Source: an uncultured bacterium (lineage in GTDB: Bacteria; Verrucomicrobiota; Kiritimatiellia; RFP12; UBA1067). Taken from it: 57,864 bases of DNA. The stretch's first letter is position 1, and each line of letters begins with the position of its first letter. A program made the position numbers and the translations under genes. The DNA is taken from NCBI GenBank assembly GCA_902780865.1, contig CACZHC010000010.1, positions 1-57,864 of the forward strand, in the 5' to 3' direction. Positions 10,386-57,864 of the stretch are shown here, piece after piece. The notes under the pieces are model-generated. The model saw only the letters and a program-made list of their open reading frames with translations, was not told the origin of the DNA and did no database searches.

Positions 10386-11712
10386 ATGATGAATGTCTAT
10401 AACTCGCTGACGCGCAGGGTCGAGGAACTCAAGCCCCTTGAAGGGAACGAAATCCGCCTCTACACCTGCGGTCCAACCGTTTACAATTTTGCGCACATCG
10501 GCAACTTCCGCGCCTACGCGTTCGAGGACATCCTCCGCCGCGTAGTCCAGTTCAACGGCATGAAGATCCGCCAGGTGATGAACCTCACCGACGTCGACGA
10601 CAAGACGATCCGCGGCGCAAATGCCGCGGGCGTCGCGCTCACGGACTACACTAAGACGTACAAGGACGCGTTCTTTGCGGATTTGAAGAAGCTCAACATC
10701 CAGCCGGCAGAGGTCTATCCTGCGGCGACCGACCACATCCCCGAGATGATCGCGCTCGTACAGAAGCTTATGGACAAGGGCGTTGCCTACCAGAGCGAAG
10801 ACGGTTCGGTCTACTTCAAGGTGCGCGAGTTCCCGGGCTACGGCAAGCTTGCCCACATCGACTTCGACAACCAGCGCACGGGCCTGAGGTGCGCGGCGGA
10901 CGAATACGACAAGGAGAACGTCGGCGACTTCGCGCTGTGGAAGGCGTGGGAGGAGTCCGACGGTCCTGTCGGCTGGGATTCACCATGGGGACGCGGCCGC
11001 CCCGGCTGGCACATCGAGTGCTCCGCGATGTCGATGAAGTATCTCGGCGAGACGTTCGACCTTCATACGGGCGGCATAGACAACCTCTTCCCGCACCACG
11101 AGAACGAAATCGCCCAGGCCGAGGCCGCGACAGGCAAGGAGTTTGTCAGGACTTGGATGCACTGCGCGCACCTGCGCGTCAACGGCGAGAAGATGTCTAA
11201 GAGCGCGGGCAACTTCTTCACGCTCCGCGACCTTCTCGAGAAGGGTTATACAGGGCGCGAGATCCGCTACGTTCTCATCAACGCGCACTACCGCACGGGT
11301 CTCAACTTCGCGTTTGACGCGCTCGAGGACGCGAGGAAGTCGCTCAGCCGCATTGACGCATGCGTCGACCGCTTGGCTCGAGTCGCGAAAACATCCTCCC
11401 ATCCCGAAGGCATTCGCCTCCCTCTTTGAGCTTGTAAGGACATGTAACGGAATGGAAGTGGACGCCGAAGCCGCGAGCGAGGCCTTGGGCGTGTTCAGGC
11501 GCATGGACGAGGTTCTCGGCATTGTCTTCTTCGAGAACGAGAAGAAGGAAGTCGAGGTTCCTGCCGAAGTTAAGGCGCTTCTCGATGCCCGCGCCGAGGC
11601 GAGAAAGGCGAAGAACTGGACCGAGTCCGACCGACTCCGCGACGAAATCGCCGCGCTTGGATGGGCTGTAAAAGACTCCCGTGATGGACAGAGTGTGGAG
11701 AAGAAGGGTTAG
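10386..11712 (+). CDS. cysS: cysteinyl-tRNA synthetase, frame-broken near 11390-11402
   Basis: YTCGPTVY, HIGN, GRPGWHIECSAMS, FPHHENE, KMSKS in frame 10386-11429; C-terminal IPKAFASLFELVR...ARKAKNWTESDRLRDEI in another frame ending at 11712; TGGTATAAT 7 nt before ATG 10386. Confidence 0.9.
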
Positions 11713-11780
11713 GAGTCAGGAGTCAGGGGTCAGTACTTAGGAGTCGGGGGTCAGGAGTCAGGAGTTAGGAAGTAGGGGTG
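11704..11780 (+). repeat. heptamer tandem array, consensus AGGAGTC, 11 units
   Basis: AAGGGTT AGGAGTC AGGAGTC AGGGGTC AGTACTT AGGAGTC GGGGGTC AGGAGTC AGGAGTT AGGAAGT AGGGGTG; spans the cysS stop and the dxr GTG start. Confidence 0.9.
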
Positions 11781-12845
11781 GCAAAGAAAATTGTTATTCT
11801 TGGCGCGACGGGGTCGATCGGCAGAAATGCGATTGACGTCGCCCTGTCACATCCTGACGAATTCAAGGTTGTCGCGCTTGTGGTACGCAGTTCACGCGAC
11901 CAATGTGAGGCGCTTGCACGCGAGCTTGGCGCGAAGGCGTATTGCGGCGAAGACGCCGCGGTTCGCGCAGTCGAAGAGAACGACGCAGACATTTGTCTCG
12001 TTGCGACCGTAGGAATGTCGGGCCTCAAGCCGACGATGGCGGCGATCGAGAAGGGGATGGACGTCGCGCTCGCCACGAAGGAAGTCATGGTGATGGCGGG
12101 CGAGTTCGTCACGCGTCGCGCGAGAGAAAAGGGCGTGCGGCTTCTGCCCGTTGACAGCGAACATTCTGCGATTTTCCAGTGTCTCCAGGGATCGCCGCGC
12201 GAATCAGTCGAGCGGCTGGTCCTGACGGCGAGCGGCGGACCGTTTCTCGACGAACCCGCCGACCTTTCGTCTGTTACCGTTGAACAGGCGCTCAACCATC
12301 CGCGCTGGAAGATGGGCCCAAAGGTCACGATCGACAGTTCCACGATGATGAACAAAGGCTTCGAGATCCTTGAGGCGCGCTGGCTCTTTGATATGCCTGT
12401 CGAGAAGATTGACGTCGTTGTGCATCCAGAGTCAATAGTCCACTCGCTCGTCACCTTTTCCGACGGCGCGACGCTCGCGCAGCTTTCGCCGCCCGATATG
12501 CGCGTTGCGATACAGTATGCGCTCACTTGGCCTGGCCGCCTTGCGTCGAAGCGCGAACAACTCGATCTCGCGGCGCTCGGCTCTTTAACCTTCCGTACGC
12601 CGGACCCAGTGCGCTTCCCATGCCTCAGGCTAGTGAAGGAGGCGTGCGCCCGCGGCGGATGCGCCGCGGCCGTTCTCGCCGCGGCGGACGAACTTGCGGT
12701 GCAGGCGTTCCTCGACGGCAAGATAAAGTACACCGACATCGCGGCCACGGTCGCAGACTGTCTGGATCTCGCCCCCGAAATCCCCTGCGATTCCCTCGAC
12801 GCGGTTTGGGCGGCGACGGAGTGGGTGTCGAAGCGGCTGGGGTAG
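11778..12845 (+). CDS. dxr: 1-deoxy-D-xylulose-5-phosphate reductoisomerase
   Basis: LGATGSIG, LATKE, PVDSEHSAIFQ, LTASGGPF, HPRWKMGPKVTIDSSTMMNKGFE, HPESIVHS, PDMR. Confidence 0.95.
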   Translation: MAKKIVILGATGSIGRNAIDVALSHPDEFKVVALVVRSSRDQCEALARELGAKAYCGEDAAVRAVEENDADICLVATVGMSGLKPTMAAIEKGMDVALATKEVMVMAGEFVTRRAREKGVRLLPVDSEHSAIFQCLQGSPRESVERLVLTASGGPFLDEPADLSSVTVEQALNHPRWKMGPKVTIDSSTMMNKGFEILEARWLFDMPVEKIDVVVHPESIVHSLVTFSDGATLAQLSPPDMRVAIQYALTWPGRLASKREQLDLAALGSLTFRTPDPVRFPCLRLVKEACARGGCAAAVLAAADELAVQAFLDGKIKYTDIAATVADCLDLAPEIPCDSLDAVWAATEWVSKRLG

Positions 12846-12893
12846 AAGACCTCGTGGTGGAATGCGGAGGCGCGTGCGCGCCTTAATTCTACC
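12841..12893. repeat. REP-like palindromic element overlapping the dxr stop
   Basis: GGTAGAA (12841-47) ... TTCTACC (12887-93) terminal inverted repeat enclosing AGGCGCG-TG-CGCGCCT (12868-83). Confidence 0.45.
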
Positions 12894-12896
12894 AGG

Positions 12897-12973
12897 CGGA
12901 TGCTACGCCGACACTGCCCCCAATCGGCTCTATCCGACGGATACTACGCTGACACTGACCCCATCGACTCTAT
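12897..12973 (+). repeat. two imperfect ~37-bp direct repeats with CTG(A/C)CCCC core
   Basis: CGGATGCTACGCCGACACTGCCCCCAATCGGCTCTAT (12897-12933) vs CGGATACTACGCTGACACTGACCCCATCGACTCTAT (12938-12973). Confidence 0.8.
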
Positions 12974-13000
12974 ATGTCCCTATTCTGACCCTGGCAGTTT

Positions 13001-13025
13001 ATCGCGGCAAATATGCCGCGATTTC
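13001..13025 (+). terminator. probable intrinsic terminator downstream of dxr
   Basis: Perfect 9-bp stem ATCGCGGCA-AATA-TGCCGCGAT followed by a short T run. Confidence 0.5.
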
Positions 13026-13083
13026 GTCCGTACCATAATCTCATTTCGCCAATCTTGTTCAAAATTTCTGACCCTTTAGCCAC

Positions 13084-13113
13084 TTGCGGCTTGCAAGGGC
13101 TTTTTGTTATAAT
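13084..13113 (+). promoter_or_regulatory. sigma70-type promoter for the island (TTGCGG-18-TATAAT, extended TG)
   Basis: TTGCGG 13084-89; TGTTATAAT 13105-13113; about 190 nt of leader before ATG 13306. Confidence 0.6.
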
Positions 13114-13305
13114 TCACTTGTTAGGTTGAGGGGCGGGCGAAACCGCCGCGATGCCGAGCGTTAGATTTCCCGCGTGGTTGGGGCGAAGAACAGTAGCCAA
13201 CCGCCGCGTTTGGGATTGCGTTGAGTTTATCTATGTCATCAGAGGAGGTGTCTATGTTCCCCGCACCGATTCCGATACGAAACAAGGGGAAAGAAAGGTG
13301 CGGAG

Positions 13306-19034: not shown

Positions 19035-21473
19035 ATGCCGCGGTGGTTGCTCTTTGCTTTCGGGCTTCTTCTCCCGGCTATTGCCGTCGGGAAGGATCTA
19101 AATGCCGCCGACGGTCGGCATGCATGGCTTCAGGGGTCGCCAGACGAGTCCGCACCGCCGCCGCTGAACATAGTCCTTGACTGTTCGCGCGGAGAGATAC
19201 ACGTCTTGCGCAGTTGGGCGAAGGACCATTTTTTCAGCACGAACGTGACGGCTCGGATGCAGTTCAGGGTATGTCCGCTTGAGCTGAGCGTTGCCGCGCT
19301 TGACAATGCAAACGTCCTTGTCGCTCCGCTGTGCGGGGGCAGCGCGTTTCCGGAATTCGACAAGACCGAGACCCACATCATGTCCGGGTTTGTGGAACGG
19401 GGCGGATTGCTTGTTGTGCCGGTTGACGGCGGCTCGGTTGCCTATGGTAAGTTCCTTGGTGACTACGGCGTTAAGTTCGAAGAGGTGTACCGAGAAAAGA
19501 TGGGCGCAGTGAAGTGTGCGCCGATTCCCCTGCGTGGATTCGACATTGAGTTGTCCGAAAAGTGGCCGAAGGAATCCTTTATGCGGCTTTCGGACAATTC
19601 TGGGTGGATTCCGATCTTTACGGCCGGAAACGAGAACGGAGAAGACGTTGCGCTCGTGGCCGTCAAGAGAGTGGGCAAGGGCTGCATCCTTGCTTGCCAT
19701 CGTGTGGTTGCCTGCGATCAAATGAACAGCAGGCTGTTCGCTAAGTTGGTCGATGCACTGGCGCGGCATATTCGCAGGATCGATTCTGATATTCCGTTTG
19801 AGAACATGACCATAACCTCTGGCATGTGTCGTCGTGCCCATGGCATTCCGATTTATTCCTGCGAGAAATTCGCCAGGGGGGCTGATCTATTCCAGGACGA
19901 GCTGAATAGGTTTATGCCTGAGCTGGAGAAGGAGCTTGGTCCGCTCTATCGTTTTCCTTCCGATGCTGCGTACCGAGCGATAGGGCGGACTGGAATTAAT
20001 GGATGTAGGATTAGAACGGATAAAGAGAACGGCTACTTTATATTCCCAGTTGGAGTTTGCTGTGATTCCCCACTTAGAGGAATGATAGAGACATGTGGCA
20101 ACCACTGGGCCATTTACTTTGACCGTTTTTTTATTTCTCAGTGCAGGTTTTTGGGGCATCCGTGGAGACAATCATTACGCGTATTTTTACTTCTGCGTGC
20201 CATGTCGCGTTCAGGGCATAAGGAGTTTGCGGAACGCAACCACAATGCTTTTTTGAGACGAGACGGAGCGTTTCGCGCGTTTTCCAAGTTGGTCGACGAG
20301 GAGCCGGAGGCCATGCAGGAGTTCTTCAATGTGTATCTTCGCCATGAGGAGAGCCACGACTTTGTGGCTCCCGTTGACGCACACCAGCTTGCGTACATGT
20401 TCGCGGAGGCGATGTATCCTCTTGGCAAGGATGCGAACAAGTACATGGGCGACCCAAACATCGCAATGAAGAAGGTGTTCGCACTGTTCAATGAATGCGG
20501 GGTCAAGGCGCGCCTCGACAGGGTGAAGTTCGAGAAGTCGCCCGTGAGGGTGGCGGGCATCCTGCCCTGGGTCTGGGACAACGGCAAGGAAATGCCAACG
20601 AAGACGTTCCGGCTGGGGAGCGCGGGCGAGACTCTGGAGTTCGCCGGATGCAAGACGGGGCGCTTCGAGATGGGCTGCCGCGATCCCGGCGACAGGAACA
20701 ACGACCCCCTTGGCCTGCATGTCGTGGCGATGACCAGGCCGTTTATGATAACGAAGACCCAGATCACGAAAGGGCAGTTCCATGCCGTGATGGGCGGCAG
20801 ACGGTGGAGGTCTTACACCAGGCTTGAGAAACTCTTCGGCGCGGAGAAAGCTGCGGCCGATGGCATCACGCTCGCCGACGCCGAGGCGTTCTGCGGGAAG
20901 CTTGCGAAGCGATACGGGAACAGGCTTCCGCCCGGCTACGAGTTCCGCCTGCCGACCGAGGCGGAATGGGAGTATGCGCTCTGGGGCGCTGAGTGCAGCA
21001 CCTCGCGGAGGAACTGGTTGCTCGGACTCCCTGCTGAGAAGGCCCGGCCACATTTCCTTCTGCCGGAGGAAAGTACACGGCTTCTGGAGCAGGCCGGATA
21101 CACGCTTGCAAAAGACGAGCAGATGCCGATGGGCCCCGTGGGGACCAAGCAGCCGAACGCCCTTGGCGTCTATGACATGCTCGGCAACGGCTGGGAGCTG
21201 CTGGCCGACCGTTTCGCCGCGCCTAAGGACGGCGCGCCCGTTTCCGATCCGCTCGTGATGGGAGAGATGCTGGGGTACAGGGAGACGGAGACAAACGCCG
21301 TCAGGGGTGTCGGGCTGGAGGCTGGCTACGGCCTTTTGCGCGGCGGGGAGTTTCTGCCCGGGCACGGGCTCTGCAAGCGCATGTTCCCGCTCGACGCGAA
21401 GGAGATGCCGCGCGACACGACGTTCCGCATTGTCATCGGCCCGAAGCTCGGCATTGGCAAGGAGGGGAAATGA
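19035..21473 (+). CDS. secreted protein with C-terminal FGE-sulfatase (SUMF1) domain and N-terminal GATase1/DUF4350-like region
   Basis: Signal peptide; FVERGGLLVV...RVGKG (GATase-like, inference); FEMG, FRLPTEAEWEYA, PNALGVYDMLGNGWE, RGG, TFRIV. Confidence 0.75.
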   Translation: MPRWLLFAFGLLLPAIAVGKDLNAADGRHAWLQGSPDESAPPPLNIVLDCSRGEIHVLRSWAKDHFFSTNVTARMQFRVCPLELSVAALDNANVLVAPLCGGSAFPEFDKTETHIMSGFVERGGLLVVPVDGGSVAYGKFLGDYGVKFEEVYREKMGAVKCAPIPLRGFDIELSEKWPKESFMRLSDNSGWIPIFTAGNENGEDVALVAVKRVGKGCILACHRVVACDQMNSRLFAKLVDALARHIRRIDSDIPFENMTITSGMCRRAHGIPIYSCEKFARGADLFQDELNRFMPELEKELGPLYRFPSDAAYRAIGRTGINGCRIRTDKENGYFIFPVGVCCDSPLRGMIETCGNHWAIYFDRFFISQCRFLGHPWRQSLRVFLLLRAMSRSGHKEFAERNHNAFLRRDGAFRAFSKLVDEEPEAMQEFFNVYLRHEESHDFVAPVDAHQLAYMFAEAMYPLGKDANKYMGDPNIAMKKVFALFNECGVKARLDRVKFEKSPVRVAGILPWVWDNGKEMPTKTFRLGSAGETLEFAGCKTGRFEMGCRDPGDRNNDPLGLHVVAMTRPFMITKTQITKGQFHAVMGGRRWRSYTRLEKLFGAEKAAADGITLADAEAFCGKLAKRYGNRLPPGYEFRLPTEAEWEYALWGAECSTSRRNWLLGLPAEKARPHFLLPEESTRLLEQAGYTLAKDEQMPMGPVGTKQPNALGVYDMLGNGWELLADRFAAPKDGAPVSDPLVMGEMLGYRETETNAVRGVGLEAGYGLLRGGEFLPGHGLCKRMFPLDAKEMPRDTTFRIVIGPKLGIGKEGK

Positions 21474-22966: not shown

Positions 22967-24142
22967 ATGGAGATTTTAATTACAATCGGCTATATTGCGA
23001 TCTGCATCGTGTTCTTCTCGCTCGCGATCGCGATTCACGAGTTCGGGCACTTCATCGTCGCGCTTAAGCTGGGGCTCAAAGTCGATCGCTTCTCGATTGG
23101 CTTTGGCCCCGCGATCTGGAAGAAGACGTGGCGCGGCGTAGAGTACAGGATCAGCTGGATCCCGCTCGGCGGCTACGTGATGATCCCCGATGTGGACCCG
23201 GAGGGGACGAAGAAGCTTGAGGGGGGATCCGGGAATGGAGAGCCGGAAACGGGGAAGAGGGAGATTTCGCCATGGAAGGAGATCGCCGTCGCGATTGCAG
23301 GCCCTGGGATGAACATTTTCCTTGCCGTCGTGCTGGCGTTTCTCCTTTCCGCGCTGTCGGCTGACAAGTTCGGCGAACTTACCTGCGAAGTCACGGCCAC
23401 GATAGAGGGAATGCCAGCTGAAAAAGCCGGCGTCAAGAAGGGCGATACCGTTGTCTCGGTCGCCGGGAAGAAGGTGAACACCTGGTCTCAGATGCATGTG
23501 GAGGTGCAGATTGCCGGAGGGAAGGAAACGGAGTTCGTCATTCGCGACAGGAGCGGCGCGGAGCGCACCGTGGTGATGACGCCAGATCAGGACAAGGTCA
23601 CCGGTGTGTTCGCGATTGGCGCCGTAAGCCTTCCGATGGAGAACGGCCTGAGGCACTGGCTCCCGGCGAGGAGCCCGATTAAGCAGCTTCTCTGGGACGC
23701 AGGGTCGATATTCCGCGTGCTGAAGGGGCTTGTGACTCCGAAGGAGACTAAAAACACCGCTAAGGCGTTGGGCGGCCCGCTGATGATAGTGGAGGGGATT
23801 TACAAGTCCGTAAGGCACGATTTCTGGGACGGAATCGGCTTTCTCAGATTCCTTAACGTCAATCTCGCCGTCCTTAACTTGCTGCCTATACCGGTGCTCG
23901 ACGGAGGTCTCATCATGTTCGCGCTTATCGCGCTTGTCTTCCGTCGGCGTGTGCCGGAGAGGATCGTATCTACTGTTTCAACGGTGTTTATGTTCCTTCT
24001 TCTCGGCGCGATGGCGATACTGATTTTCCGCGATGCGCAAAGGAGCTGGCGCATCCACACCTACAAGCCGGAGGTCGAGGAGTCGGCAGTAACTAATACG
24101 GTTACTACAGTCACGAATGAGACGGACAACGCGAGCAATTAA
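22967..24142 (+). CDS. rseP: RIP metalloprotease RseP (M50, PDZ)
   Basis: HEFGH, FSIGFGP, IPLGGYV, AGPGMN, PDZ PAEKAGVKKGD, NLLPIPVLDGG. Confidence 0.93.
   Translation: MEILITIGYIAICIVFFSLAIAIHEFGHFIVALKLGLKVDRFSIGFGPAIWKKTWRGVEYRISWIPLGGYVMIPDVDPEGTKKLEGGSGNGEPETGKREISPWKEIAVAIAGPGMNIFLAVVLAFLLSALSADKFGELTCEVTATIEGMPAEKAGVKKGDTVVSVAGKKVNTWSQMHVEVQIAGGKETEFVIRDRSGAERTVVMTPDQDKVTGVFAIGAVSLPMENGLRHWLPARSPIKQLLWDAGSIFRVLKGLVTPKETKNTAKALGGPLMIVEGIYKSVRHDFWDGIGFLRFLNVNLAVLNLLPIPVLDGGLIMFALIALVFRRRVPERIVSTVSTVFMFLLLGAMAILIFRDAQRSWRIHTYKPEVEESAVTNTVTTVTNETDNASN
23224..23265 (+). repeat. degenerate in-frame heptamer array (GGGAANN x6) in an RseP loop
   Basis: GGGATCC GGGAATG GAGAGCC GGAAACG GGGAAGA GGGAGAT, 42 nt, encoding GSGNGEPETGKRE. 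Confidence 0.55.
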
Positions 24143-26811: not shown

Positions 26812-26855
26812 GCTTCAAACTTCAAACATCTAACATCAAACATAAAGCTCTCAAC
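26807..26855 (+). repeat. heptamer tandem array, consensus WTCAAAC, 7 units
   Basis: CATAAGC TTCAAAC TTCAAAC ATCTAAC ATCAAAC ATAAAGC TCTCAAC, filling the spacer before dapL. Confidence 0.8.
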
Positions 26856-33999: not shown

Positions 34000-36357
34000 G
34001 TGAAGAAGGTTGTCTATAACCTGCTGTTCGCCATCGTCTATCCGTTTCTCCTGCCTGGCTTTCTCGTCCGAATGCTGAGGCGCGGCGGATATGCCGCGCG
34101 GATGGGCGATAGGTTCGCCCTTTATCCGGACGAAGTACTGGCAAAGTTCAGGGAAGGCGGTTTCGTCTGGATTCACGCCGTTTCCGTCGGCGAGGTCCAG
34201 GTCGCGGGCCAGCTGATGCGCGAATGGCGAAAGGTCGAGCCAGCCGTCAAGTTCGCCTTTTCGACGACGAGTTCCACCGGCTGGAAGATGGCCGAGAAGG
34301 AAATCTCCGAACGCGACGTCCTCATATACAATCCGCTCGACTTCCCGAATTTCGTCAAGAGCGCGCTGAAGACCGTCCGTCCTCGCGCGGTAGTCCTCAC
34401 CGAAAGCGAAATCTGGCCCAACTTTATCTGGACGGCGCGACGCTACCGCATACCTGTCTTTCTAATAAACGCGCGCGTCAGCGACCGCAGCGCTCCGCGC
34501 TACAAGGCCGCCCGCTGGTTCTTCGGCGACGTTCTCTCTTCGTTCGCCCGCATCTTCGCGCAGTCCGATCTCGACGCAACCCGCCTCGTTGCCGCGGGCG
34601 CCCCTGAAAGAATCGTCGAGGTGACGGGCAGCTTCAAGTTTGACGTCGCGCACCGCAACGAGGCGAAGGAGCGTGAGCTCAGGGACTGGATAGGCCCAGG
34701 ACGCATACTTCTCGGCGGCTCGACCTGGCCAGGAGAGGACGAGGCGCTTCTCCGCATATACTCCGATATCACGAAGGCGCAGGGCGGCGTGCCGCAAGTA
34801 AAGCTCGTCATAGCCCCGCGCCACTTCGAGAAAGCCGACGCCGTAGAGGCGAACATCACATCCGCCGGCTTCTCGTGCGTTCGTCGCAGCAGAAAAGACT
34901 TGCCCACTCACCCACTCGCCAACTCCTCCACTCCCGTCTACCTCGCCGACACGACTGGCGAGCTGATGGGGCTTTACGGAATCGCTGATGTCGTGTTTGT
35001 CGGAAAGTCCCTCTGCGCCCACGGAAGCCAGAACATGATCGAGCCTTGTCTTTGCGGCAAGCCGACGGCCGTCGGGCCTTACACAGAAAACTTCCGTCCC
35101 GTCATGAGCGATCTTCTCGCGGCCGACGCCATACGCCAGGTGAAGGACGAAATGGAGCTTGGCGAATTCGTGAAAAGTTCTTTTGCCGACGATGGCGGGC
35201 TTGGCGAACGCGCGGCTGCGGCAGTCGAGCGCCGGAAGGGCGTCGTTCCGAAGTGCGTCGAGGCGATACGCCGCGTACTTGTCTGCGTCGCGCTTCTTCT
35301 CGTCGTCGCCGGATGCGGAAATGACGGCGGCGACGATGCCAAGAAGACAAAAGCCGAACCAGAGGAAAGCTCGTTTCGCCCCGTCAAGATAACAACCGCC
35401 TGCATCGCGGCAATCGAGAAGCCCACTGCGACGCGAGTGCTGCTCGTAGACGACAAGGCAGAGACGTTCAGGCCGTTCCTCTCTTCGTTTGGCGTAATCT
35501 GCGTCTCGAACGAGGAGGCCGCCGCTGAATCGAAGTTCGACATCGTATTTCTCGCCGGCACGGCTGATTCCGAGAAGCTTTCCGCCGCCCTTGGGCGTAC
35601 GGGCGAGACTGGCGTCCTCGCTTGGCGTCTTGCCGTCAAGGACATGAGCGCAGCGGACTTCAAGACTGCCGTCGAGTCGTTTCCTTGCGAAGCGGCGCAT
35701 CTCTGGATGCCAAGTGCCGAGGAATGGGTTTTCGTCGGCCGCCGCTCGCATCGCAAGTTAAAGCTCGACGCGATGATGGACGTCTTTTCGCGTGAAGTGG
35801 CGTTTGAGGCGCTTGCCGAGGCAAAGGCGACCGCGCTTTCCGACGTCTTTGCAAGCTATGTCGGAAATCTTGACGGTCTTTCGGGGGCGTTTGCGTCGAC
35901 GAACCTCTCTGTCGTGGTTCGCCCTGAGTTTTTCGTTACGAAGGACATCCCGCCGCTTGACTGGGTGACGCGCGGTGACGTTGACGAAGACATCTACAAG
36001 GCGACTCTCGCCGAGATTCGCTCGATGCAGGTCGTGCGCCGTCTTGTGATAGAGGGCGATCTCCTTGCCGCAGAGGGCAAGGCGGACGACGCCACCGAAG
36101 TGTGGGCGCGGGCCATGCTCAGGAATCCCCGCGACCCGATGCTGCTTGACCGCCTCGACAAATTGTCGCGCAATGCGGAGGCGCTTCTCGCCGTGGGCAA
36201 CGTCGCTGCTGCGGCAAAGTGCTACGAGACAATGGTTGTCATAAACCCGACGGATGCGTCGGCTGTGTTAAAATACGGCATGAGCCTTCGCCGCCTCGGC
36301 AAGAAGGAGATGTCCGATCAAGTGCTCAAACGAGCAGGGGAGCTGAGAAAGAAATGA
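34000..36357 (+). CDS. waaA: Kdo transferase WaaA fused via an internal signal-like segment to a ~350-aa domain ending in TPRs
   Basis: WIHAVSVGE, PLD, ESEIWPN, INARVSDRS, QS, GSFKFD, GSTWPGED, APRHFE, DTTGEL, FVGKSL, QNMIEP in the first ~425 aa, then RRVLVCVALLLVVAGC and C-terminal TPR-like helices. Confidence 0.8.
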   Translation: MKKVVYNLLFAIVYPFLLPGFLVRMLRRGGYAARMGDRFALYPDEVLAKFREGGFVWIHAVSVGEVQVAGQLMREWRKVEPAVKFAFSTTSSTGWKMAEKEISERDVLIYNPLDFPNFVKSALKTVRPRAVVLTESEIWPNFIWTARRYRIPVFLINARVSDRSAPRYKAARWFFGDVLSSFARIFAQSDLDATRLVAAGAPERIVEVTGSFKFDVAHRNEAKERELRDWIGPGRILLGGSTWPGEDEALLRIYSDITKAQGGVPQVKLVIAPRHFEKADAVEANITSAGFSCVRRSRKDLPTHPLANSSTPVYLADTTGELMGLYGIADVVFVGKSLCAHGSQNMIEPCLCGKPTAVGPYTENFRPVMSDLLAADAIRQVKDEMELGEFVKSSFADDGGLGERAAAAVERRKGVVPKCVEAIRRVLVCVALLLVVAGCGNDGGDDAKKTKAEPEESSFRPVKITTACIAAIEKPTATRVLLVDDKAETFRPFLSSFGVICVSNEEAAAESKFDIVFLAGTADSEKLSAALGRTGETGVLAWRLAVKDMSAADFKTAVESFPCEAAHLWMPSAEEWVFVGRRSHRKLKLDAMMDVFSREVAFEALAEAKATALSDVFASYVGNLDGLSGAFASTNLSVVVRPEFFVTKDIPPLDWVTRGDVDEDIYKATLAEIRSMQVVRRLVIEGDLLAAEGKADDATEVWARAMLRNPRDPMLLDRLDKLSRNAEALLAVGNVAAAAKCYETMVVINPTDASAVLKYGMSLRRLGKKEMSDQVLKRAGELRKK
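34897..34936 (+). repeat. in-frame octamer array (CACTCNCC x5) in a WaaA loop
   Basis: GACTTGCC CACTCACC CACTCGCC AACTCCTC CACTCCCG, encoding DLPTHPLANSSTP. Confidence 0.65.
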
Positions 36358-45035: not shown

Positions 45036-46187
45036 TTAACGGCGTGAGCTTTGCGTGGGTGTGCTTTTCCTGTATTCTCGCATTGTCAGTCCTGTGCGGG
45101 CGAGAAACATCTTCTTGACGAAGGCGTCGGAACGATAACCGCAGTGAGTGACCACGGTGGCGATTGGAAGCCGTGTTCTTGAAAGAAGATCGCACGCCTT
45201 CTCGAAGCGGTGCTCGTGTATTTCCGCAAGCATTGTGCGCCCCGTCTCCTTCTTGAACTGGAGCGTCCCCATCCTTCGCGAGCAGCCCATGTCCTTGATG
45301 ATGTTGTCAAGGCGTATCGACTGGCTGCAGGCGTTGCGGCGTATATATTCCAATGCGCGTCTTACGCGAGCGCTTGTCCCTGACGGAGCTGCGGTCGATC
45401 CTCTTCGTACAAGCCGCAACGGCCCATAGAACTCGACTCTTTCCTTTTTCCTCTTTCCTTTCCTCTTTTTCTTTTCATCGATTTCTTCCGCAAGCATCTG
45501 CGCGAGACGATAGCCAGCTCCTTCAAAGTCCGGTTCTGCGCTCGTAAGCCCCGGCGTGACGGATTCACAGAACATTTCATCGTTGTCGATTCCGGCAATT
45601 GCGACATCGTCGGGGATGGATAGCCCGGCGGTCGTCGCGGCATGATAGGCCTTGACTGCGCAGTCGTCGTTCGCGCCGAGTATTCCGCAGGGCTTGGGTA
45701 GCGCACAGATCGCTTCTCTTAGCCCTGTCTGCGGCAAAACCGTCACCGAAGACCCGGCGGCACTCGCGTCCTTTCGGAACTGCATAAAACGGTCGTTGTC
45801 CCAGTGTAGTTTCTTCCCAGTTCCGATGTATGCGTATGATTTGCAGTTGAGCTTCAGAAGCTCTCCTCCTGCGATGGAGGCTTCGGCTGCCGAATCGTGC
45901 AGCAGGCAAGGATGTCGCTTCGAGCGGTGCGCGGGATTCTGGTCGAGGTATACGGTTGGAATATCTCGAAAAAGCAGGTCGGGCGGCGCACCGTTGCTCA
46001 TCGCGCAATCGACAAGGCATCCTATCGGCCTCCACTCGTCTAGGGAGCTGCGTATTTCGTCTGGGGTCGCATAGCGACCGATCACCTGCACGAACCATCC
46101 GCGTTCCTGCGCGAACATGTGCACCCCCGCAAGCTTCTGTCGCCAGCTTTTGCGAAGCGTCGACTGAAAGAAGAGTATGATTTCCAT
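45036..46187 (-). CDS. XylR-type transcriptional regulator (LacI-like ligand-binding domain + AraC HTH)
   Basis: LPKPCGILGAND, IPDDVAIAGIDND, LTS...GY..A..L, RRGST, then AraC HTH (FKKETG, R..KACDLL..T, CGY). Confidence 0.88.
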   Translation of the reverse strand: MEIILFFQSTLRKSWRQKLAGVHMFAQERGWFVQVIGRYATPDEIRSSLDEWRPIGCLVDCAMSNGAPPDLLFRDIPTVYLDQNPAHRSKRHPCLLHDSAAEASIAGGELLKLNCKSYAYIGTGKKLHWDNDRFMQFRKDASAAGSSVTVLPQTGLREAICALPKPCGILGANDDCAVKAYHAATTAGLSIPDDVAIAGIDNDEMFCESVTPGLTSAEPDFEGAGYRLAQMLAEEIDEKKKRKGKRKKERVEFYGPLRLVRRGSTAAPSGTSARVRRALEYIRRNACSQSIRLDNIIKDMGCSRRMGTLQFKKETGRTMLAEIHEHRFEKACDLLSRTRLPIATVVTHCGYRSDAFVKKMFLARTGLTMREYRKSTPTQSSRR

Positions 46188-46193
46188 GTGCAA

Positions 46194-46281: not shown

Positions 46282-49200
46282 ATGAAACAAATCAATGTCT
46301 TTACGGTCGTTGCCTTCTTTGGTTGCTTTGCCGCAGTCGGAGAAGTCTTTTTCAAGGAAGATTCTGTCGTCCTCCCGACGTATGCGCCGGGTGGATACGA
46401 CAAGACGCCGCTCTTCTACACGGGGCGCGTCTATCAGGGTGCGCAAGGACGCGTCTACCCGTATCCGATGCAGGACGTCCTGCACGATGAGAAGTTCGAC
46501 GAGACGTACAAGTACCTGACGCTCGAGAATGACTGGCTTCAGATGGGGCTTCTTCCCGAGCACGGCGGACATCTCCTCAACTTCACCGACAAAGCGACCG
46601 GTTTTGAGACCTTTTATCGCCAGCATGTCATAAAGCCCGCGCTCATCGGAATGCTCGGCGCGTGGATATCTGGCGGCGTCGAATGGAACTTCCCGCACCA
46701 CCACCGCGCGACGACGGCGATGCCCATCGACTGGCGGGCGGTCGAGAACGCGGACGGATCGAAGACGATCTGGATCGGCGAGACGGAGCTGCCGCCGCCT
46801 TAAATGGACGATTGGCCTCTCGCTTCTCCCCGACCGCGCCGTTTTGAAGGCGGAGAACGTCTTCATGAACCGCCAGCCGTGGATCGAGTCGATGATCTAC
46901 TGGGCGAACGTGTCCGTTCACTGCGGCGACGACTATCAGATTCTCTTCCCGCCGTCCATGCACCTTGGCTTCGACCACCACAAGAACTACTGGACGAGTT
47001 TTCCGATTGGCCCCAGGAAGGAGGAGGTGGAGCTTCTTCCATCTCAGCGCTCGAAGTATGCGGACGACATATCGGGCACGATGGACCTTTCTTGGTGGAA
47101 GAACTTCACCATCGAGTCGCGTTCAATTTTCGGAATGGATCCCGACAACGCGTTCATGGCCGGCTACGATCACAAGAAGCAGTGCGGAACGGCGCATGTC
47201 TCGAACCGCCACATCACGGTCGGCAAGAAATTCTTCCTCTGGGGCAACTTCCCCGAGGCGCACGTGTGGGACAAGGTTCTCACGGACAACGACGGACCCT
47301 ACCTCGAACTGATGGTCGGCTGCTGGTCGGACAACCAGCCGGACTACTCGTGGATCGCGCCGTACGAGACGCGCAAGGTCGAGCAGTTCTGGTTTCCAGT
47401 GAAGGGGATCGGCGGCATCAAGAACGTGACGATCGACGGTGCGGTAAATGTTGACCGTCTCGCAGATGACAAGATGCTCGTCGGTTTCCACTCGACGCGC
47501 GTACTGAAGGATTGCACGATCACTCTCTTCAAGGATCGCGAGGCGGTCTTTACCGAGAAGGGCGTAGCCATCGATCCGAACGCGCCTTGGTGCAAGACGA
47601 TTGCCGCAGAGAAGGGGGTTGCTGACCAGCGCTACACGGCGGCGATAGCAGACGCTTCGGGCAAGGTGTTTCTCTCTTATACTCCAGTTCCGCCGCAGGG
47701 TGATGTAGAACTGCCGCCAAAAGTGGAGAACCCGAAGCCACCGCAGGAATACACGTCCGCCGAACTTGCCTACGAGGTGGGATTGCGCCTCGACCAGTTC
47801 CAGAACGGAATTCTCGATCCCGTGCCGTACTACAAACGCGCACTTGAAATCGACCCCGACTATTCGAAGGCCAATCTTGCAATGGGCGTGCGGTTTGCGA
47901 AGAACGGTAGCTACGCCGAGGCGAAGCCGTATCTTGAAAAGGCGGTTGCGCGCGCAACACAGAACCATACGCGCGCGCTCGACGCTGCGCCAGAATATTA
48001 CCTCGCGCTCGTGGAGCGATATCTTGGCAACCTGAAGCGTGCGGAAGACCTCTTCTGGCGCTGCACATGGCGTCTCACGCACAAGAAGGAATCGTATGTC
48101 GAACTTGCCAGAATTGCCGCGCTCAAAGGCGACTGGCAGGAAGCGCTCGCGCGAATTGACGATGCCCTCGCGCTCGGCCAGGACGAGGCGAAGCTGTGGA
48201 CGATGAAGGGCATCTTCCTGAGGAAGTTGAGAGTTGAAGAGGGAGTTTTCAAAGCATCCAACGTTTACCACTCCTACGCCGTTAAGCTCGACAGAGCGCT
48301 GAAATGTGATCCGATAGAATACTGGGCGGTGGTTGAAAAAGACGGGTTTGAAGCGGCCGAGAAGAACCGCGGGCTCAAGGCGCAGCAGCTCTTGGAGTGC
48401 GTGAGCGACTACTGGGGCATCGGATGCTACGACGAGGTAATCGCGCTCTGCGACGCCGCGCTCGCGAAAGCCGCGGCAGAAAAGCCATACGCGACCGAGG
48501 GCGCCCTGCCGCTCAAGGATACTATTGCCGCCTGCGACAGCTACAAGAACGCGCTCTTCGGCTACTTCAAGGGGGCGGCGATACTGGAAAAGTTGAAAGT
48601 TGAAAGTGAAAAGTTTAAAGTTGAGTGCAGAGTCGACAGCAACTTTAAACTTTCAACTTCAAACTTTAAACTCGCACAAGCGGCGTTTGCCGCCGCTGCG
48701 GCGATGCCCACCGACTACTGCTTCCCGAACCGGCTTGAAGAGGAAGAAGTTCTGAAGATGGCGGCGAAGGCAGCGCCAGACCTTGCGAACACCTGGTACT
48801 ATCTCGGATGCTGCGAATGGAACCACGACCGCAAAGATGCTGGCCTCGCCGACTGGAAGAAATGTGTCGTGCTGTGTGAATCCGCAAATCCTGTCAATCC
48901 TGTTAATCCTGTCAAAAAGACATCTTCCTACGCCCTTGCGCTTCGCTGTATTGGCTTTGCGCTCTCGCATCCCGGCTCGTACTTCACCAACACGGGCATA
49001 CCTTCGGGCGTCGCAAGCCGCGAGGCATACGACTATTACCTGAAGTCTCTCGAAGCCGATTCCGGCAATTTCCGCGCACTCGACGAGGCGGGCAAGCTCG
49101 CCGAGAAGCTGAACCTTCCCGCGGCGGAGCGTCTGGCGCTTATGGAAAAATATCGCGCGACGGTCGACAAGTACGATCCGTGCATCCTGCGCTACGCCTA

Positions 49201-51633: not shown

Positions 51634-53844
51634 ATGAAGAGAGTAGCAGCATCCGCCTGCGCAGCGATGGCGTTCGCGACCGTCTGGGCAGACACAGGTT
51701 TTTCCGTGGGACGCTGGAACGTCGCCTTTTCCGACGAAGGCGAACGACTCGTCCTGTCCCATGCCGACGGCTTTGCCGAAGTTTCGGGAACGGTTTCGTT
51801 TAAAGGACCGGCCGTCGTCACGGGAGCGGGGGTCGGCGCGGACGGTTCGGCCGCACGCTGGCGCGTCGCCTCGCCACGCGACGGCGCGAAAGAACGTCTT
51901 GCGCTTGTTGACGCGCGGGACAACGTGAACGGCTACATTTCGTTCCAGCCGGACGGCGAGGGCGTTTCGATGCTCGTCTACCATCGCACGGCGTTCGCAT
52001 ACGAAGGGGCGCTCTCGTTCGCCGGAGAAGTCCGCTACCGGGACGACGCGTATCCGTGCCGTCTTTCGCCGATCGCGGGCGACAGGGTGCTTTCCGTCAA
52101 GAGCGGCAACGCCGTCTCAAATCTCGATGACGCGCTTTTCTCGCCATCGGCGGACGAGGCGCTGGAGTTCAAGAGTTTAAAGCTGAAAGAGAAAAGTGGA
52201 AAGTTGTCGGTATCGGCGAAACTCAAGATCGACGACGCGACTGCGAACGCGATGTCAGTCAAGATCGTCAAGGATTGGTACAAGTCGCGCTGGGTGCCGT
52301 ACTGGCGAGCTCCGAACCGCGATCGTTCACCCCATGCGCCCACTGGCTGGCTCAGCTGGAATACTTACTTCGACACAGCCGGCTCAAAGGAGAATCTTGA
52401 CGAGGCGCGTTTTGCCGCGAAGTGGTTCAAGCCGTTTGGGATGGAGATATGGAACATCGAGTCGTGGCAGGACAATTCGCCGAAACTCCCCGTCTCGAAT
52501 TTCCACAACATGAACCTCGAGACGTACAAGACGCAGTTCCCCGAGGGGATGAAGTGGCTCGCGGACGAGATTCGGAAACTCGGTTTCAGACCGGGACTCT
52601 GGATGGCGCCCTATGGAACAGGCAACGACGAATTCTATGCGCGGCACAAAGACTGGTTCCTCCACGACAAGGAAGGAAAGCCCATCCGCTCATGGAACGG
52701 AAAGTATACGCTCGACCCGACTGCGCCAGGTGCGCTTGAGCATTTGACTTCGATATTCGACAGGGCATCGCACGAGTGGGGGTACGAGTTCTTCAAGATC
52801 GACGGAATGTCGGGACGCGGACCCGGCTACTGCGCGCATCTCTACGAGCGGCCCGAAGTGCGCGCGGCGATGCACGACACGTCGTGTCCCAATCCGTTCG
52901 AGCGCACCGTCGCCGCGTACAGGAAGGGCATCGGCGACGACCGCATCTTTCTCGCCTGTCAAGGTCATTTCACGGGTGCGGAGGCGGGTTATGCCGACGC
53001 AAGCCGCACGGGAGCGGACATAGTCCACCCCAACGAACCGGTAAAGTGGGAGAACATCCTTCTTCAGGCGCGCTGCACGGTCAACCAGTTTTTCGCGCAC
53101 GCTAACGTGTTCTGGTCAGACCCAGACTGCATGCTCGTCTCGCAAGGTGCGCTTGCACGCGAACAGGCGCAGGTCGAGGCGACGGTCGTCGCGCTCCCCG
53201 GGCAGCAGACGTTCGCAGGCGACAAGCTCGCTGAACTCGCGCCAGACCGTGTGCGGCTCATCCAGCAGGCGCTTCCCGTGTGCCCGACGCGTCCGGGGAA
53301 GCTCTATCCGATGTTCGGGCACCTGCCGGTCTGGGATCTCCACGTGTCGCGTCCTTTCGGCGACTGGCATGTCGTCGCACTCTTCAACTGGGGCGATGAC
53401 GAGAAAGTCGTTTCCGTCTCGTGGAATGAACTCGGCGAAGACCCAGACAGACGCTTCGTCGCGTGGGAGTTCTGGACGGATACCTACCTTGGAGAGCGGA
53501 AGGGCAGTCTTTCCGCGGCAGTTCCGCCGCGCGGCGTTCGGCTCTTCGCCCTCCAGCCGCTTGCGGACCATCCGCAGTTTCTCACGTCCGATCGTCATCT
53601 GACACAGGGCGCAGTTGGGCTTCTTGGCCAGAAGTGGGATGGATCGCGTCTTGTTGCAAAAGTTGATGCCGTTGGCGGTTTCCCGCAAGTTGCGCGTTTT
53701 GCGGTGCCGAAAGAATGGAAGATCAAAAGTGCAACGGCCAATGGCGTTGGCATCAAGGTGAAAGAGGAGTGTAGCGGAAGGGTGGCTGCCGTGGAGCTTT
53801 CTGTTCCTCGCTCCTGTGTCGTAGACCTTTGCCTTGACTTTTAG
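51634..53844 (+). CDS. clan GH-D (GH36/GH27-like) alpha-galactosidase-like hydrolase, secreted
   Basis: PTGWLSWN, FPEGMKWLAD, PGLWMAP, LDPTAP, FFKIDG, SRTGADI, WSDPD; signal peptide starts at ATG 51634, preceded by TGATATGCT + 7 nt. Confidence 0.8.
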   Translation: MKRVAASACAAMAFATVWADTGFSVGRWNVAFSDEGERLVLSHADGFAEVSGTVSFKGPAVVTGAGVGADGSAARWRVASPRDGAKERLALVDARDNVNGYISFQPDGEGVSMLVYHRTAFAYEGALSFAGEVRYRDDAYPCRLSPIAGDRVLSVKSGNAVSNLDDALFSPSADEALEFKSLKLKEKSGKLSVSAKLKIDDATANAMSVKIVKDWYKSRWVPYWRAPNRDRSPHAPTGWLSWNTYFDTAGSKENLDEARFAAKWFKPFGMEIWNIESWQDNSPKLPVSNFHNMNLETYKTQFPEGMKWLADEIRKLGFRPGLWMAPYGTGNDEFYARHKDWFLHDKEGKPIRSWNGKYTLDPTAPGALEHLTSIFDRASHEWGYEFFKIDGMSGRGPGYCAHLYERPEVRAAMHDTSCPNPFERTVAAYRKGIGDDRIFLACQGHFTGAEAGYADASRTGADIVHPNEPVKWENILLQARCTVNQFFAHANVFWSDPDCMLVSQGALAREQAQVEATVVALPGQQTFAGDKLAELAPDRVRLIQQALPVCPTRPGKLYPMFGHLPVWDLHVSRPFGDWHVVALFNWGDDEKVVSVSWNELGEDPDRRFVAWEFWTDTYLGERKGSLSAAVPPRGVRLFALQPLADHPQFLTSDRHLTQGAVGLLGQKWDGSRLVAKVDAVGGFPQVARFAVPKEWKIKSATANGVGIKVKEECSGRVAAVELSVPRSCVVDLCLDF
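52165..52207 (+). repeat. degenerate in-frame AAGTTGA-family heptamer array
   Basis: GAGTTCA A GAGTTTA AAGCTGA AAGAGAA AAGTGGA AAGTTGT, an A-rich patch encoding EFKSLKLKEKSGKL. Confidence 0.6.
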
Positions 53845-53851
53845 CTACAGC

Positions 53852-54783: not shown

Positions 54784-54806
54784 GTTGCCAATGTGAAAGG
54801 AGAAAC

Positions 54807-56531: not shown

Positions 56532-56533
56532 AA

Positions 56534-57864
56534 ATGACAATGTGTAAATGTGAAAATATTGCCAATTACCAATACCCAATGTTGCAAGTTGGAAATTGGA
56601 AACTTATATTGTCAATACTGGCAACACTGGCAACATTCACCACGGCTTTTGCGGGCATCAAGTACGATATCCCGATGATGGATATCAGCAAAGAGGCGGG
56701 ACCTAACGGAACGCGCCTTGGAGACGTGTGCCTTGCCGGGAAAAAGTACTGGGCTTCGCTTTGCGTCAAGACGCCCAGTCGAGTCACGATCCCGCTTGGC
56801 GGCGGTGCAGTTTCGCTCAGCGCCGTCAGTGGAGTCGACTGCCGCAACGAGGTGGACGAACCTGCGACATTCCGCATAGTCGCTCCGGACGGAAAGGTCA
56901 TGTGGGAGAAGGCGGGCGTCAAGAAAGGCGTGAAGCTTGATGCGACGGTGGACCTGACGGGCCTTGAGTCCGTCGTTCTTGAGGTGTCCGGCGCTGACGG
57001 CATAATGGCCGGATGGGCGTTCGGAACCGTCTTCGAGTTTGCCGACGGGAAGTATCCGCCGAACGACGTCAGGATGCACACGCCACAGCTTGGCATTCTT
57101 ACGCCTCCAGAGAGCGCAAAACCGCGCATCAACGGGCCTGTCGTGTACGGCGTGAGACCCGGCCATCCGATCATCTACCGCGTGCCAGTCACAGGCCAGA
57201 GGCCGATGAAGATTTCCTTAGCCGCAAAGAACACAAAGTGCGCAAAGAACTGTAGCGAATGTCTTTGCGATCTTTGCGTCCTTTGCGGCAAAAAAATAAC
57301 CTTCGATCCGGTGATGCATGTGATTACTGGCGCAATTGATCAGCCAGGCGAGTACAAGATTACTATTGTCGCAGAAAACAGCGAGGGGCGCGATTGCCGC
57401 GACTTCACGATCAAGGTCGGCGACAAGATCTCGCTGACCCCCGCGATGGGCTGGAACAGCTGGAACTGTTTCTCCTGGAATGTAACCGCCGACGATGTCC
57501 GCAAAGCGGCGGATGCGTTCGAGAAGACCGGGCTTGCCGAACACGGCTGGGCATACGTCAACATCGACGACTTCTGGCAGAACAAGCCAACGTCATGGAT
57601 GAAGGAACTCCACGGTCCTGTGCGTGACGAGAATGGAAAGGTAAACACGAACAAGCGCTTTCCGGACATGAAGGGGCTTGTCGACTACATCCACTCCAAG
57701 GGGTTCAAGGCCGGGATCTATTCTTCACCCGGGCCAAAGACATGCGGAGGATGCGAAGGAAGCTGGCAGCACGAGGCGCAGGATGCGAAGACCTATGCCG
57801 AATGGGGCTTTGACTACCTGAAGCACGACTGGTGCAGCTACGGGAGCGTCGCGACTGGCGAAGG
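56534..57864 (+). CDS. GH27 alpha-galactosidase with N-terminal NPCBM-like and Ig-like (He_PIG) domains; truncated by window end
   Basis: Own translation from ATG 56534 is open to the window end: signal-like ...ILSILATLATFTTAFA, ILTPP..AKPRINGP.VYGVRPG, TPAMGWNSWN, YVNIDDFW, FPDMKGLVDYIHS.G.K.GIYSSPG, WGFDYLKHDWC. Confidence 0.88.
   Translation, partial: MTMCKCENIANYQYPMLQVGNWKLILSILATLATFTTAFAGIKYDIPMMDISKEAGPNGTRLGDVCLAGKKYWASLCVKTPSRVTIPLGGGAVSLSAVSGVDCRNEVDEPATFRIVAPDGKVMWEKAGVKKGVKLDATVDLTGLESVVLEVSGADGIMAGWAFGTVFEFADGKYPPNDVRMHTPQLGILTPPESAKPRINGPVVYGVRPGHPIIYRVPVTGQRPMKISLAAKNTKCAKNCSECLCDLCVLCGKKITFDPVMHVITGAIDQPGEYKITIVAENSEGRDCRDFTIKVGDKISLTPAMGWNSWNCFSWNVTADDVRKAADAFEKTGLAEHGWAYVNIDDFWQNKPTSWMKELHGPVRDENGKVNTNKRFPDMKGLVDYIHSKGFKAGIYSSPGPKTCGGCEGSWQHEAQDAKTYAEWGFDYLKHDWCSYGSVATGE
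56539..56637. repeat. degenerate palindromic AT-rich repeat element forming the 5' end of the GH27 gene
   Basis: AATGTGTA AATGTGAA AATATTGCCAAT TACCAAT ACCCAAT ... TTGGAAA TTGGAAA ... ATTGTCAAT ACTGGCAAC ACTGGCAACATT. Confidence 0.7.
57221..57289. repeat. 69-nt in-frame palindromic element: 3x NNCGCAAAG / loop / 3x CTTTGCGNN
   Basis: GCCGCAAAG AACACAAAG TGCGCAAAG AACTGTAGCGAATGT CTTTGCGAT CTTTGCGTC CTTTGCGGC; encodes AAKNTKCAKNCSECLCDLCVLCG. Confidence 0.92.

Follow-up and report, generated by a model that had tools for sequence, protein, structure and literature searches.

A 57,864-nucleotide (nt) stretch of contig CACZHC010000010.1 of an uncultured bacterium of the Kiritimatiellia (assembly GCA_902780865.1), referred to in its full length as the window, carries short arrays of tandem words, some of them paired as palindromes, at gene junctions and inside genes, and this raises the question of what these arrays are and how they came to be there. 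An initial annotation made from the letters alone had proposed about ten such elements, eight of which are real according to Tandem Repeats Finder (TRF), an inverted-repeat finder and direct reading. On the evidence presented below, the real elements are probably the gene-less hairpins and single arms of small selfish cassettes that resemble the open reading frame (ORF)-bearing intervening sequences (IVS) of 23S rRNA. A full cassette consists of a G- or purine-rich arm of 3 to ~20 tandem words of 7–10 nt, a tiny gene that has start signals of its own and encodes either a GxxExxY protein, PD-(D/E)XK nuclease-like, or a four-helix-bundle protein, Avd/S23p-like, and a C- or pyrimidine-rich arm that is the reverse complement of the first. 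Many word families exist side by side, with cassettes, hairpins and solo arms turning over fast in this ruminant-gut genus of Kiritimatiellia. Copies sit mainly in short intergenic spacers; those in coding sequences (CDSs) would survive only where the net frame is kept, stops are avoided and a tolerant loop or linker is hit, and would then be translated as low-complexity peptide loops or, once, as a signal peptide. The hairpins would derive from cassettes or use the same insertion mechanism, and slippage may alter copy number after insertion.

The analysis draws on the 3.36-Mb assembly to which the window belongs (178 contigs, 85.6% complete), on 61 genomes of the genus (G labels), on Pfam searches of the 39 ORFs of the window and, as strain-level data, on contigs that were mapped on the window from an RNA run and from three further gut metagenomes (X labels). 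The sequencing runs that contain the window are ruminant gut metagenomes.

Elements of the window and their orthologous sites

The eight real elements are the following, with site names in brackets where they differ from the first coordinate:

11704..11779, plus strand: solo G-rich arm-type array, AGGRGTC in 8.6 (about 9) copies, by TRF
26815..26843, plus strand (26807): heptamer array, TCAAACW in 4.1 copies, by TRF and direct reading
34903..34935, plus strand (34897): solo C-rich arm, CCCACTCC in 4.1 copies, in frame in KdtA and encoding part of the loop KDLPTHPLANSSTP, by TRF and Pfam
48224..48262, plus strand: decayed GAGTTGA-type remnant, in frame in a DUF5107-TPR protein
48589..48672, plus strand (48590): intact 84-nt hairpin, in frame in the DUF5107-TPR protein and encoding EKLKVESEKFKVECRVDSNFKLSTSNFKL, by inverted-repeat finder and folding
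48887..48918, plus strand (48879): solo C/T-rich arm, AATCCTGTC in three copies (3.2 by TRF) with an AAAAAG terminus, in frame and encoding NPVNPVNPVKK
56535..56640, plus strand (56539): nested composite where two glycoside-hydrolase-type genes meet, spanning a gene start
57218..57292, plus strand (57221): intact hairpin of the CGCAAAGAA family, in frame between NPCBM and GH27-type domains and encoding LAAKNTKCAKNCSECLCDLCVLCGK

Five of these elements lie inside CDSs (34897, 48224, 48590, 48879 and 57221), not eight of ten as had been stated; 56539 spans a start, and 11704 and 26807 are intergenic. The elements are non-autonomous, as the initial annotation held, and the window offers no candidate for a mobilising gene: Pfam detects no transposase, reverse transcriptase, four-helix-bundle or GxxExxY gene among the 39 ORFs.

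The best pair of filled and empty sites is the cysS–dxr junction, where the 11704 array occupies the entire spacer in sense orientation, with the cysS stop codon TAG (11710-11712) inside its first unit and the dxr start codon GTG at 11778; the flanks match Pfam CysS_C and DXP reductoisomerase. In G003 (92% amino acid (aa) identity) synteny is kept and the stop and start codons overlap as TAATG, an empty site, so that the window differs by 65 nt of array between the TA and the start codon, with the array supplying the last base of the stop. No array of this type is present at the other dxr loci examined in the genus (0/29). The 26807 array lies in the 46 nt that separate the stop of a Wzy_C-type gene (26811) from the start of an aminotransferase gene (26858); G003 and G013, at 94% aa identity the closest relatives, lack it, and other short arrays are found in the same spacer in other congeners (L159, L161).

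Inside genes, the KdtA loop at 34897 exceeds that of G013 (84% identity) by 8 aa; in the same loop G042 has a GGTGAAG/CTTCACC hairpin and G040 another, both of them unrelated hairpins. The DUF5107-TPR protein has three insertions, each of them absent in G016, G007 and G018. At 48224 it is ~10 aa longer than its G007 and G018 orthologues, and G006 carries a full GAGTTSG/CSAACTC hairpin at this site. The 48590 hairpin comprises a G/A-rich array (GAAAGTT)n at 48589-48622, a 17-nt loop and a C/T-rich array (AACTTTM)n at 48640-48672, with arms of 33 nt that are 85% complementary; G006 has a hairpin of a different unit at the same site, and contigs of X2 and X5 join 48580 to 48683, bypassing the hairpin. 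Around the third insertion, the 48887 arm, a contig of X3 has 24 other letters in place of 48875-48943.

The 57221 hairpin is laid out as TTAGC-(CRCAAAGNN)x3, a loop of 12–13 nt, and (NTCTTTGCG)x3-GC-AAAAAAA. In G018 (85% aa identity) these flanks (ATGAAGATTTCYTT ... AAAAAAATA) enclose a GACAGGATT hairpin instead; only a left arm of GACAGGATT is present in G012, no hairpin in G013, and contigs of X2 and X5 join 57207 to an AAAGTTG arm. This joint, taken together with the arms of the window and of G018 and G012, means that three different arm families occupy one nucleotide position in different relatives or contigs. Such contig joints were accepted at a likeness of at least 90%, and their source may be related species rather than strains.

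The two intact palindromes announced earlier are both present; the 84-nt length of the first is confirmed, and the second measures 75 nt (arms of 31 nt, 84% complementary), the 69 nt given for it being its inner part. Compared with 200 dinucleotide shuffles each, both fold more strongly than any shuffle (0/200 equal in either case; z -3.9 for 48589-48672 and -6.2 for 57218-57292). Folding is absent from the solo arrays of the window.

The composite at 56535-56640 combines AATGTG and TTGCCAAT on its left with ATTGGAAA and TGGCAACA on its right, and its right half encodes a start codon and a plausible signal peptide, MLQVGNWKLILSILATLATFTTAFA. The G018 orthologue has the TGGCAAYA part only (MKLAILATLATF), a contig of X2 jumps 56550-56607 (85 letters on the shorter side), and the same composite begins a 2717-aa protein at C14:40952. 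At C14:40930-40990 and at window positions 56590-56650 the composite encodes the first ~20 residues (ML.IGNWKL.L..LA.LAT) of two unrelated large secreted proteins, and it may be a portable start-plus-signal-peptide module.

In total, orthologous sites are empty at 11704, 34897, 48224, 48590, 48879 and 57221, and empty or differently filled at these and at 26807. Gain, loss and replacement between orthologues are seen, and this turnover suggests that the elements are mobile. In the other metagenomes contig depth rises 5- to 20-fold over bins containing arms, and loose contig ends fall at arm borders (48589, 48621, 48640, 48672, 48887, 48918, 57262 and 57294). The host genes KdtA, the DUF5107-TPR protein and the NPCBM/GH27-type protein are real by Pfam, and the inserts at 48590 and 57221, which orthologues lack, are read through in frames that hold Pfam domains both before and after them. 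The arms thus add new peptide loops, as had been suggested, that are rich in K/E/L/V, G/S/Q/E or N/P/V. Two predicted insert peptides, LKVESEKFKVECRVDSNFKL and AAKNTKCAKNCSECLCDLCVLCGK, can serve as markers of translation; the RNA run X16 contributed 59 short contigs, none of which bridges a hairpin inside a CDS.

The window has several other features. CTCTTTC is repeated 4.9 times at 45437-45468 within the ORF of an AraC-type regulator on the minus strand (45036-46193), and its translation there would be rich in K/E/G; this array may be an eleventh element, absent from the earlier list. The cysS gene (10314-11712) is read in two overlapping frames, 10314-11429 with the catalytic domain and 11143-11712 with the DALR and anticodon-binding domains, a frameshift that is either genuine or an artefact of assembly. 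At 46780-46850 a 2-nt deletion (GAGCT--GCCGCC) interrupts the DUF5107-TPR gene, which in three orthologues is a single ORF of ~1150-1190 aa. Directly downstream of dxr lies a 41-nt direct repeat (12897-12973; 1.9 copies, 86% matches), and ~3.6 copies of a 39-nt repeat at 42705-42867 encode a Gly/Pro/Gln-rich segment of an ORF without Pfam match (42471-44120), a protein-level repeat unrelated to the word arrays.

Word families, termini and reading frame

TRF run over all contigs of the assembly detects 86, 59, 66, 11 and 5 arrays of at least three copies for periods of 7, 8, 9, 10 and 11 nt, compared with 0–1 arrays per period in two second-order Markov shuffles of the genome. The view that the unit sequences are unrelated, and that the system is defined by periodicity rather than sequence, is wrong on the scale of the genome; an architecture common to many word families is real. 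When arrays of periods 7–10 with at least 2.8 copies are compared with 17 labelled words, allowing at most one mismatch, 208 of 348 can be assigned to recurring families, among which are AGGRGTC, AAACTTY/AAAGTTG, ACGCAGAG, CGCAAAGAA, CGTGTAGAA, GACAGGATT, TTAGTCG, CAATCAAA, CCACTCCC and TTAGGGTCNN. Each of these ~17 families has a specific word and conserved, non-repeated termini at many loci, and the same words are found in both orientations, inside and outside genes and around cassettes. The conserved ends of the hairpins take the following forms:

TTTTAA-(CGCAGAGN)3-4 ... (NCTCTGCG)3-4-TTAAAA
TTTTAGC-(CGCAAAGAN)3 ... (NTCTTTGCG)3-GCTAAAA
TTTTAGC-(CGTGTAGAN)3 ... (left end)
TTTTTA-(GACAGGATT)3 ... 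(AATCCTGTC)3-TAAAAA

Loops of hairpins from different word families repeatedly contain a GC-rich mini-hairpin, CTGGGGC-nnnn-GCCCCAG, in many cases with a T-run after it (C141:5792-5822, C19:14920-14960, C26:11570-11600 and 21100-21140, C48:53410-53440 and C110:920-945), which gives a nested, terminator-like arrangement.

Such arrays could also be read as low-complexity coding sequence of the ordinary kind or as microsatellites that arose by chance, without a common origin, and this is true of two sites on the original list, whose orthologues are collinear. The stretch 23224..23265 (plus strand), the G/A-rich loop-coding part of RseP (M50 protease), has no TRF call and the same length as in the two closest orthologues, G003 and G013; G033, G032 and G040 have tandem inserts in this loop, which varies across the genus, and an apparent 530-nt in-frame insert in the RseP of G018 proved to be a tandem duplication of PDZ domains. 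The stretch 52165..52208 (plus strand) is ordinary coding sequence of a 776-aa melibiase-type glycoside hydrolase (GH), collinear residue for residue with all 11 aligned orthologues and paralogues. For the eight real sites, the contrast between 0–1 shuffled and 59–86 observed arrays per period, together with the reuse of the same words, refutes the chance reading, and as a general explanation we find it barely credible.

The position of arrays relative to genes was judged with a crude, home-made gene model based on codon usage (2299 ORFs covering 88% of the genome, leaving ~12% intergenic), on which all CDS and intergenic array counts rest. With this model 140 of the 208 assigned arrays are intergenic, some of them spanning exactly from a stop codon to the next start codon, and 68 lie within ORFs, 44 of these at least 90 nt from both ends of an ORF with a strong coding score. 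One 1521-aa ORF with a strong coding score, at C40:4800-8400, has four separate arm insertions, three of the CGCAAAGAA type and one of the ACGCAGAG type, and the reading frame runs through the TTTTAGC terminus of every one of them.

How such copies keep the frame open is answered in part by their lengths. The palindrome lengths had been taken to be multiples of three as a property of the element, and a frame-preservation bias had been expected; measured from terminus to terminus, intergenic hairpins are distributed 10/9/10 by length modulo 3, and among those located in strong ORFs several measure 61 or 70 nt. The intergenic split is the usable part of this test, since the search expression, which allowed two substitutions, also caught false pairs and the CDS calls are crude. 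With no bias in hairpin length, frame preservation looks like survivorship rather than a property of the element: the frame is kept because both alleles are open reading frames, a filter and not a mechanism. Two observations point to selection on the frame. In the 48590 hairpin the strict heptamer register gives way to a 6-nt unit followed by TTAAAGT at the very point where a TGA would enter the frame, and all eight AGGRGTC arrays in model ORFs are in the stop-free orientation, the reverse word having TGA in every frame.

The intergenic majority also invites the explanation that these are host-serving RNA elements under selection, either hairpins for RNase III processing or stability or multi-Shine-Dalgarno (AGGAG) coupling spacers, the CDS copies being accidental. 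Many of the intergenic arrays run exactly stop to start, AGGRGTC arrays between co-directional genes are 16 sense against 7, both palindromes fold strongly as RNA, and RNase III is reported to cut the analogous IVS stem (PMC4990558). Such a role is nevertheless hard to reconcile with positions that are not conserved (the array missing from the 29 other dxr loci, the closest relatives without the 26807 array), with the 44 arrays deep in strongly coding ORFs, or with the opposite orientation bias of AAACTTY (5 sense, 15 antisense), and the U-run before and A-run after the stem are the reverse of an intrinsic terminator. We therefore regard this explanation as quite improbable. Intrinsic terminators as such were considered and rejected, since on both strands a T-run precedes and an A-run follows the stem, with some loops containing an inner GC hairpin and then Ts.

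Arms around GxxExxY and four-helix-bundle genes

The preferred reading, that the elements belong to gene-bearing cassettes, depends on what the same words flank elsewhere. Profile searches of the 61 congeneric genomes found PF13366, the GxxExxY family (also TIGR04256, on which one protein, from an ORF that runs into its right arm, scores 142.5 bits), in 42 genomes and PF05635, the four-helix-bundle family, in 43, in 35 of them over the cut-off; a search of PDB by sequence at E ≤ 0.01 gave no relative of the GxxExxY protein. Flanks were displayed for 29 GxxExxY loci, 25 of them usable for scoring, and for 27 four-helix-bundle loci. At least three inverted 7-mers are common to the upstream and downstream flanks at 23 of the 25 and 24 of the 27, respectively, so that the association stated in the initial annotation holds in the genus. 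Its proposed link to DUF559/Vsr-like genes finds no counterpart, with no PF04480 match in the 85.6%-complete genome.

The arms are built from the families described above. GxxExxY genes are flanked by GACAGGATT arms at loci L036, L038, L043, L045 and L049, by ACGCAGAG arms at L041, L047, L048 and L052, and in G031 (L054) by CACAAAGAA, a family related to the 57218 arms. Families of the window also serve as arms of four-helix-bundle cassettes: AGGRGTC, the word of 11704, in G039 (L194); GAGTTGA/AAAGTTG, the family of the 48590 hairpin, in G004 (L199); and the TTGCCAAT/TGGCAACA composite, with the words of 56539, in G053 (L203). GxxExxY cassettes in G013, G034 and G056, with an ORF ending in ...NPVNPVNPV*, have a right arm identical to the 48887 arm. 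At L036:1486-1902 the GxxExxY ORF reads through its own right arm, the last nine residues NPVNPVNPV and the stop coming from the arm and its TAAAA terminus, and this tail is the very peptide that the 48887 arm adds to the TPR protein.

The genome to which the window belongs has a single PF05635 match (C48:30638-30865; 29.3 bits, below the Pfam cut-off), which is flanked by inverted decamer arrays, one with 5 units and the other with 19, and a single PF13366 fragment (C23) followed by a right-arm-like end, CTTTGTGGCTAAAAAA. An extended -10-like motif, TGGTATAAT or TTGATATAAT, is present 5–30 nt upstream of many start codons of the genus, those of GxxExxY cassettes included (L119-L146, upstream of dxr, and L030-L046), and is probably the common promoter form of the genus.

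Origin of the arms and relation to known systems

Several observations weigh against the derivation of hairpins and solo arms from mobile cassettes. Most arrays are solo, without a nearby inverted partner, and more than 200 arrays stand against one sub-cut-off four-helix-bundle gene and one GxxExxY fragment in the same genome, a count limited by an assembly that is 85.6% complete and in which repeats assemble poorly. No transposase-like gene linked to the arms was identified. Orthologues had been expected to reveal empty sites with target duplications; empty sites there are, and no target-site duplication is visible at the cysS–dxr pair. Within one family the loops of the hairpins are unrelated in sequence and length. 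As a search for remnants of cargo genes, eight inter-arm stretches were compared by blastn and tblastx with the GxxExxY and four-helix-bundle loci, and the idea was rejected: five short loops (31–111 nt) have no match to any retrieved cassette locus at E ≤ 1e-3, and the sole matches are arm words in a 662-nt stretch of C110, which holds an unrelated 186-aa ORF. With loops both unrelated and unmatched, there is no evidence that the hairpins arose through loss of their cargo, and a single master element spread by simple copy-and-paste is unlikely. Since two unrelated cargo families share one design, the cargo may furthermore not be the mobilising agent.

Alternatively, the arms could be written in place, a break or nick being healed by templated addition or slippage of a G-rich word on both 3' ends; after joining, this would give (word)n-loop-(reverse word)n, and whatever lay at the break, a small gene included, would end up between arms. 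The polarity of the elements is what 3'-end addition predicts. The G-rich copy lies upstream at 24 of 24 four-helix-bundle loci and 21 of 23 GxxExxY loci, and in the genome of the window the purine- or G-richer arm comes first in 10 of 11 inverted pairs with a gap of at most 111 nt; as a palindrome is the same on both strands, this polarity belongs to the element itself and does not reflect the orientation of genes. Writing in place would also accommodate the unrelated loops within a family, the variable and asymmetric copy numbers (5 and 19 units at C48), the different word families at the same nucleotide position in relatives and the missing target duplication. Copied units rather than free synthesis are, however, suggested by the conserved termini (TTTTAGC...GCTAAAA) and, in the 9-mer families, by arms of exactly three units, and a co-inherited unit by the GxxExxY subfamily, which appears to go with the arm word in the displayed loci; moreover, no enzyme or template was identified, the 85.6%-complete genome having no match to the reverse transcriptase profile RVT_1. 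We consider writing in place unlikely, and the cassette reading preferable.

Which known systems come closest? Rickettsia palindromic elements (RPE) are non-autonomous palindromes that insert in frame in functional genes and contribute a peptide segment at tolerant positions; their families are 100–150 nt long, with the whole sequence conserved. The inserts at 48590 and 57221, palindromic, in frame in functional CDSs and absent from orthologues, resemble them, but the elements described here have tandem 7-10-nt word arms, unrelated loops, many word families and gene-bearing full-length relatives, and are mostly intergenic. As far as the sequences allow a judgement, the unrelated loops argue against any whole-element consensus of the RPE kind.

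The ORF-bearing 23S rRNA IVS share more. That of Coxiella comprises an S23p ORF, tandem heptamers upstream of it that vary in number between strains, and terminal inverted repeats forming a stem that RNase III cuts; the ORF-bearing IVS of Coxiella burnetii and Leptospira are sporadically distributed, thought to be horizontally acquired and regarded as selfish (PMC4990558). A small PF05635-type gene between terminal inverted repeats is likewise found at 24 of the 27 loci of the genus and at C48:30638-30865. The differences are that here both arms consist entirely of tandem words, that a second cargo family, GxxExxY, has the same design, that copies and cassettes sit between or inside protein-coding genes and not in rRNA helices, and that the window has gene-less forms only. 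Insertion in 23S helix 25 or 45 is found for none of the window copies or displayed cassettes, the rRNA genes of this metagenome-assembled genome lying outside the comparison.

Dispersed heptamers, namely the short tandemly repeated repetitive (STRR) sequences of cyanobacteria and GGGNATC of Xanthomonas and Nostoc, lie between co-directional ORFs near stops and starts in variable copy number (Rehm et al. 2015, PMC4692102). They resemble our arrays in being tandem 7-nt words spread over the genome, mainly intergenic (61 of the 86 period-7 arrays are intergenic or at gene edges by our gene model). The words found here differ in unit and extend to periods of 8, 9 and 10 nt. In those reports the arrays figure as solo, G-quadruplex-forming repeats, and the abstract mentions neither inverted arms as partners nor a cargo of genes nor copies in frame in CDSs; here the same words form inverted arms around PF05635 genes and hairpins in the genome.

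Miniature inverted-repeat transposable elements (MITEs) and repetitive extragenic palindromes (REP) with their paired form, REPIN, are also short, non-autonomous, dispersed hairpins that are mostly intergenic, and MITEs share the terminal inverted repeats. The MITE comparison fails on the missing target duplication at cysS–dxr, the lack of a conserved internal sequence and the lack of an arm-linked transposase. A link to REPIN through REP-associated tyrosine transposases (RAYT) was rejected as well: the genome has four PF01797 genes and no word arrays within 2.5 kb of any. The only complete one, a RAYT-like gene at C21:9000-10300, has GC-rich palindromes of the GCCGCCAAGATGGCGGC and CTCCCAGT...ACTGGGAG types on both sides, and constitutes a separate REP-like system in the same genome.

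A full-text literature search found no paper joining IVS, dispersed heptamers and RPE and, supplements aside, none linking tandem-word arms to GxxExxY or four-helix-bundle genes outside rRNA IVS. New here are the filled, empty and swapped orthologous sites in essential genes, the counted polarity, the replacement of one family by another and the arm-encoded signal peptide. Tentatively, we raise the possibility of an undescribed and widespread bacterial system, in which inverted tandem-word arms are built or carried around tiny genes for an Avd-like four-helix bundle or a GxxExxY nuclease, families overwrite each other at one nucleotide position, and gene-less copies regularly provide loops, linkers and signal peptides in essential genes; STRR and rRNA IVS might then be two faces of it.

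For the genus itself, the results bring together three long-unexplained things, the excess of 7-9-nt intergenic tandem repeats, the large GxxExxY and 23S-IVS-protein families of unknown function and the palindromic gene inserts, and provide filled, empty and swapped sites on which insertion chemistry and the fate of RNA and protein can be tested, at the cysS–dxr junction, the KdtA loop, the DUF5107-TPR protein and 57221. They also bear on annotation, as ORFs are fused or extended by the arrays, stop and start codons as well as signal peptides originate from them, and metagenome assemblies are broken by them.

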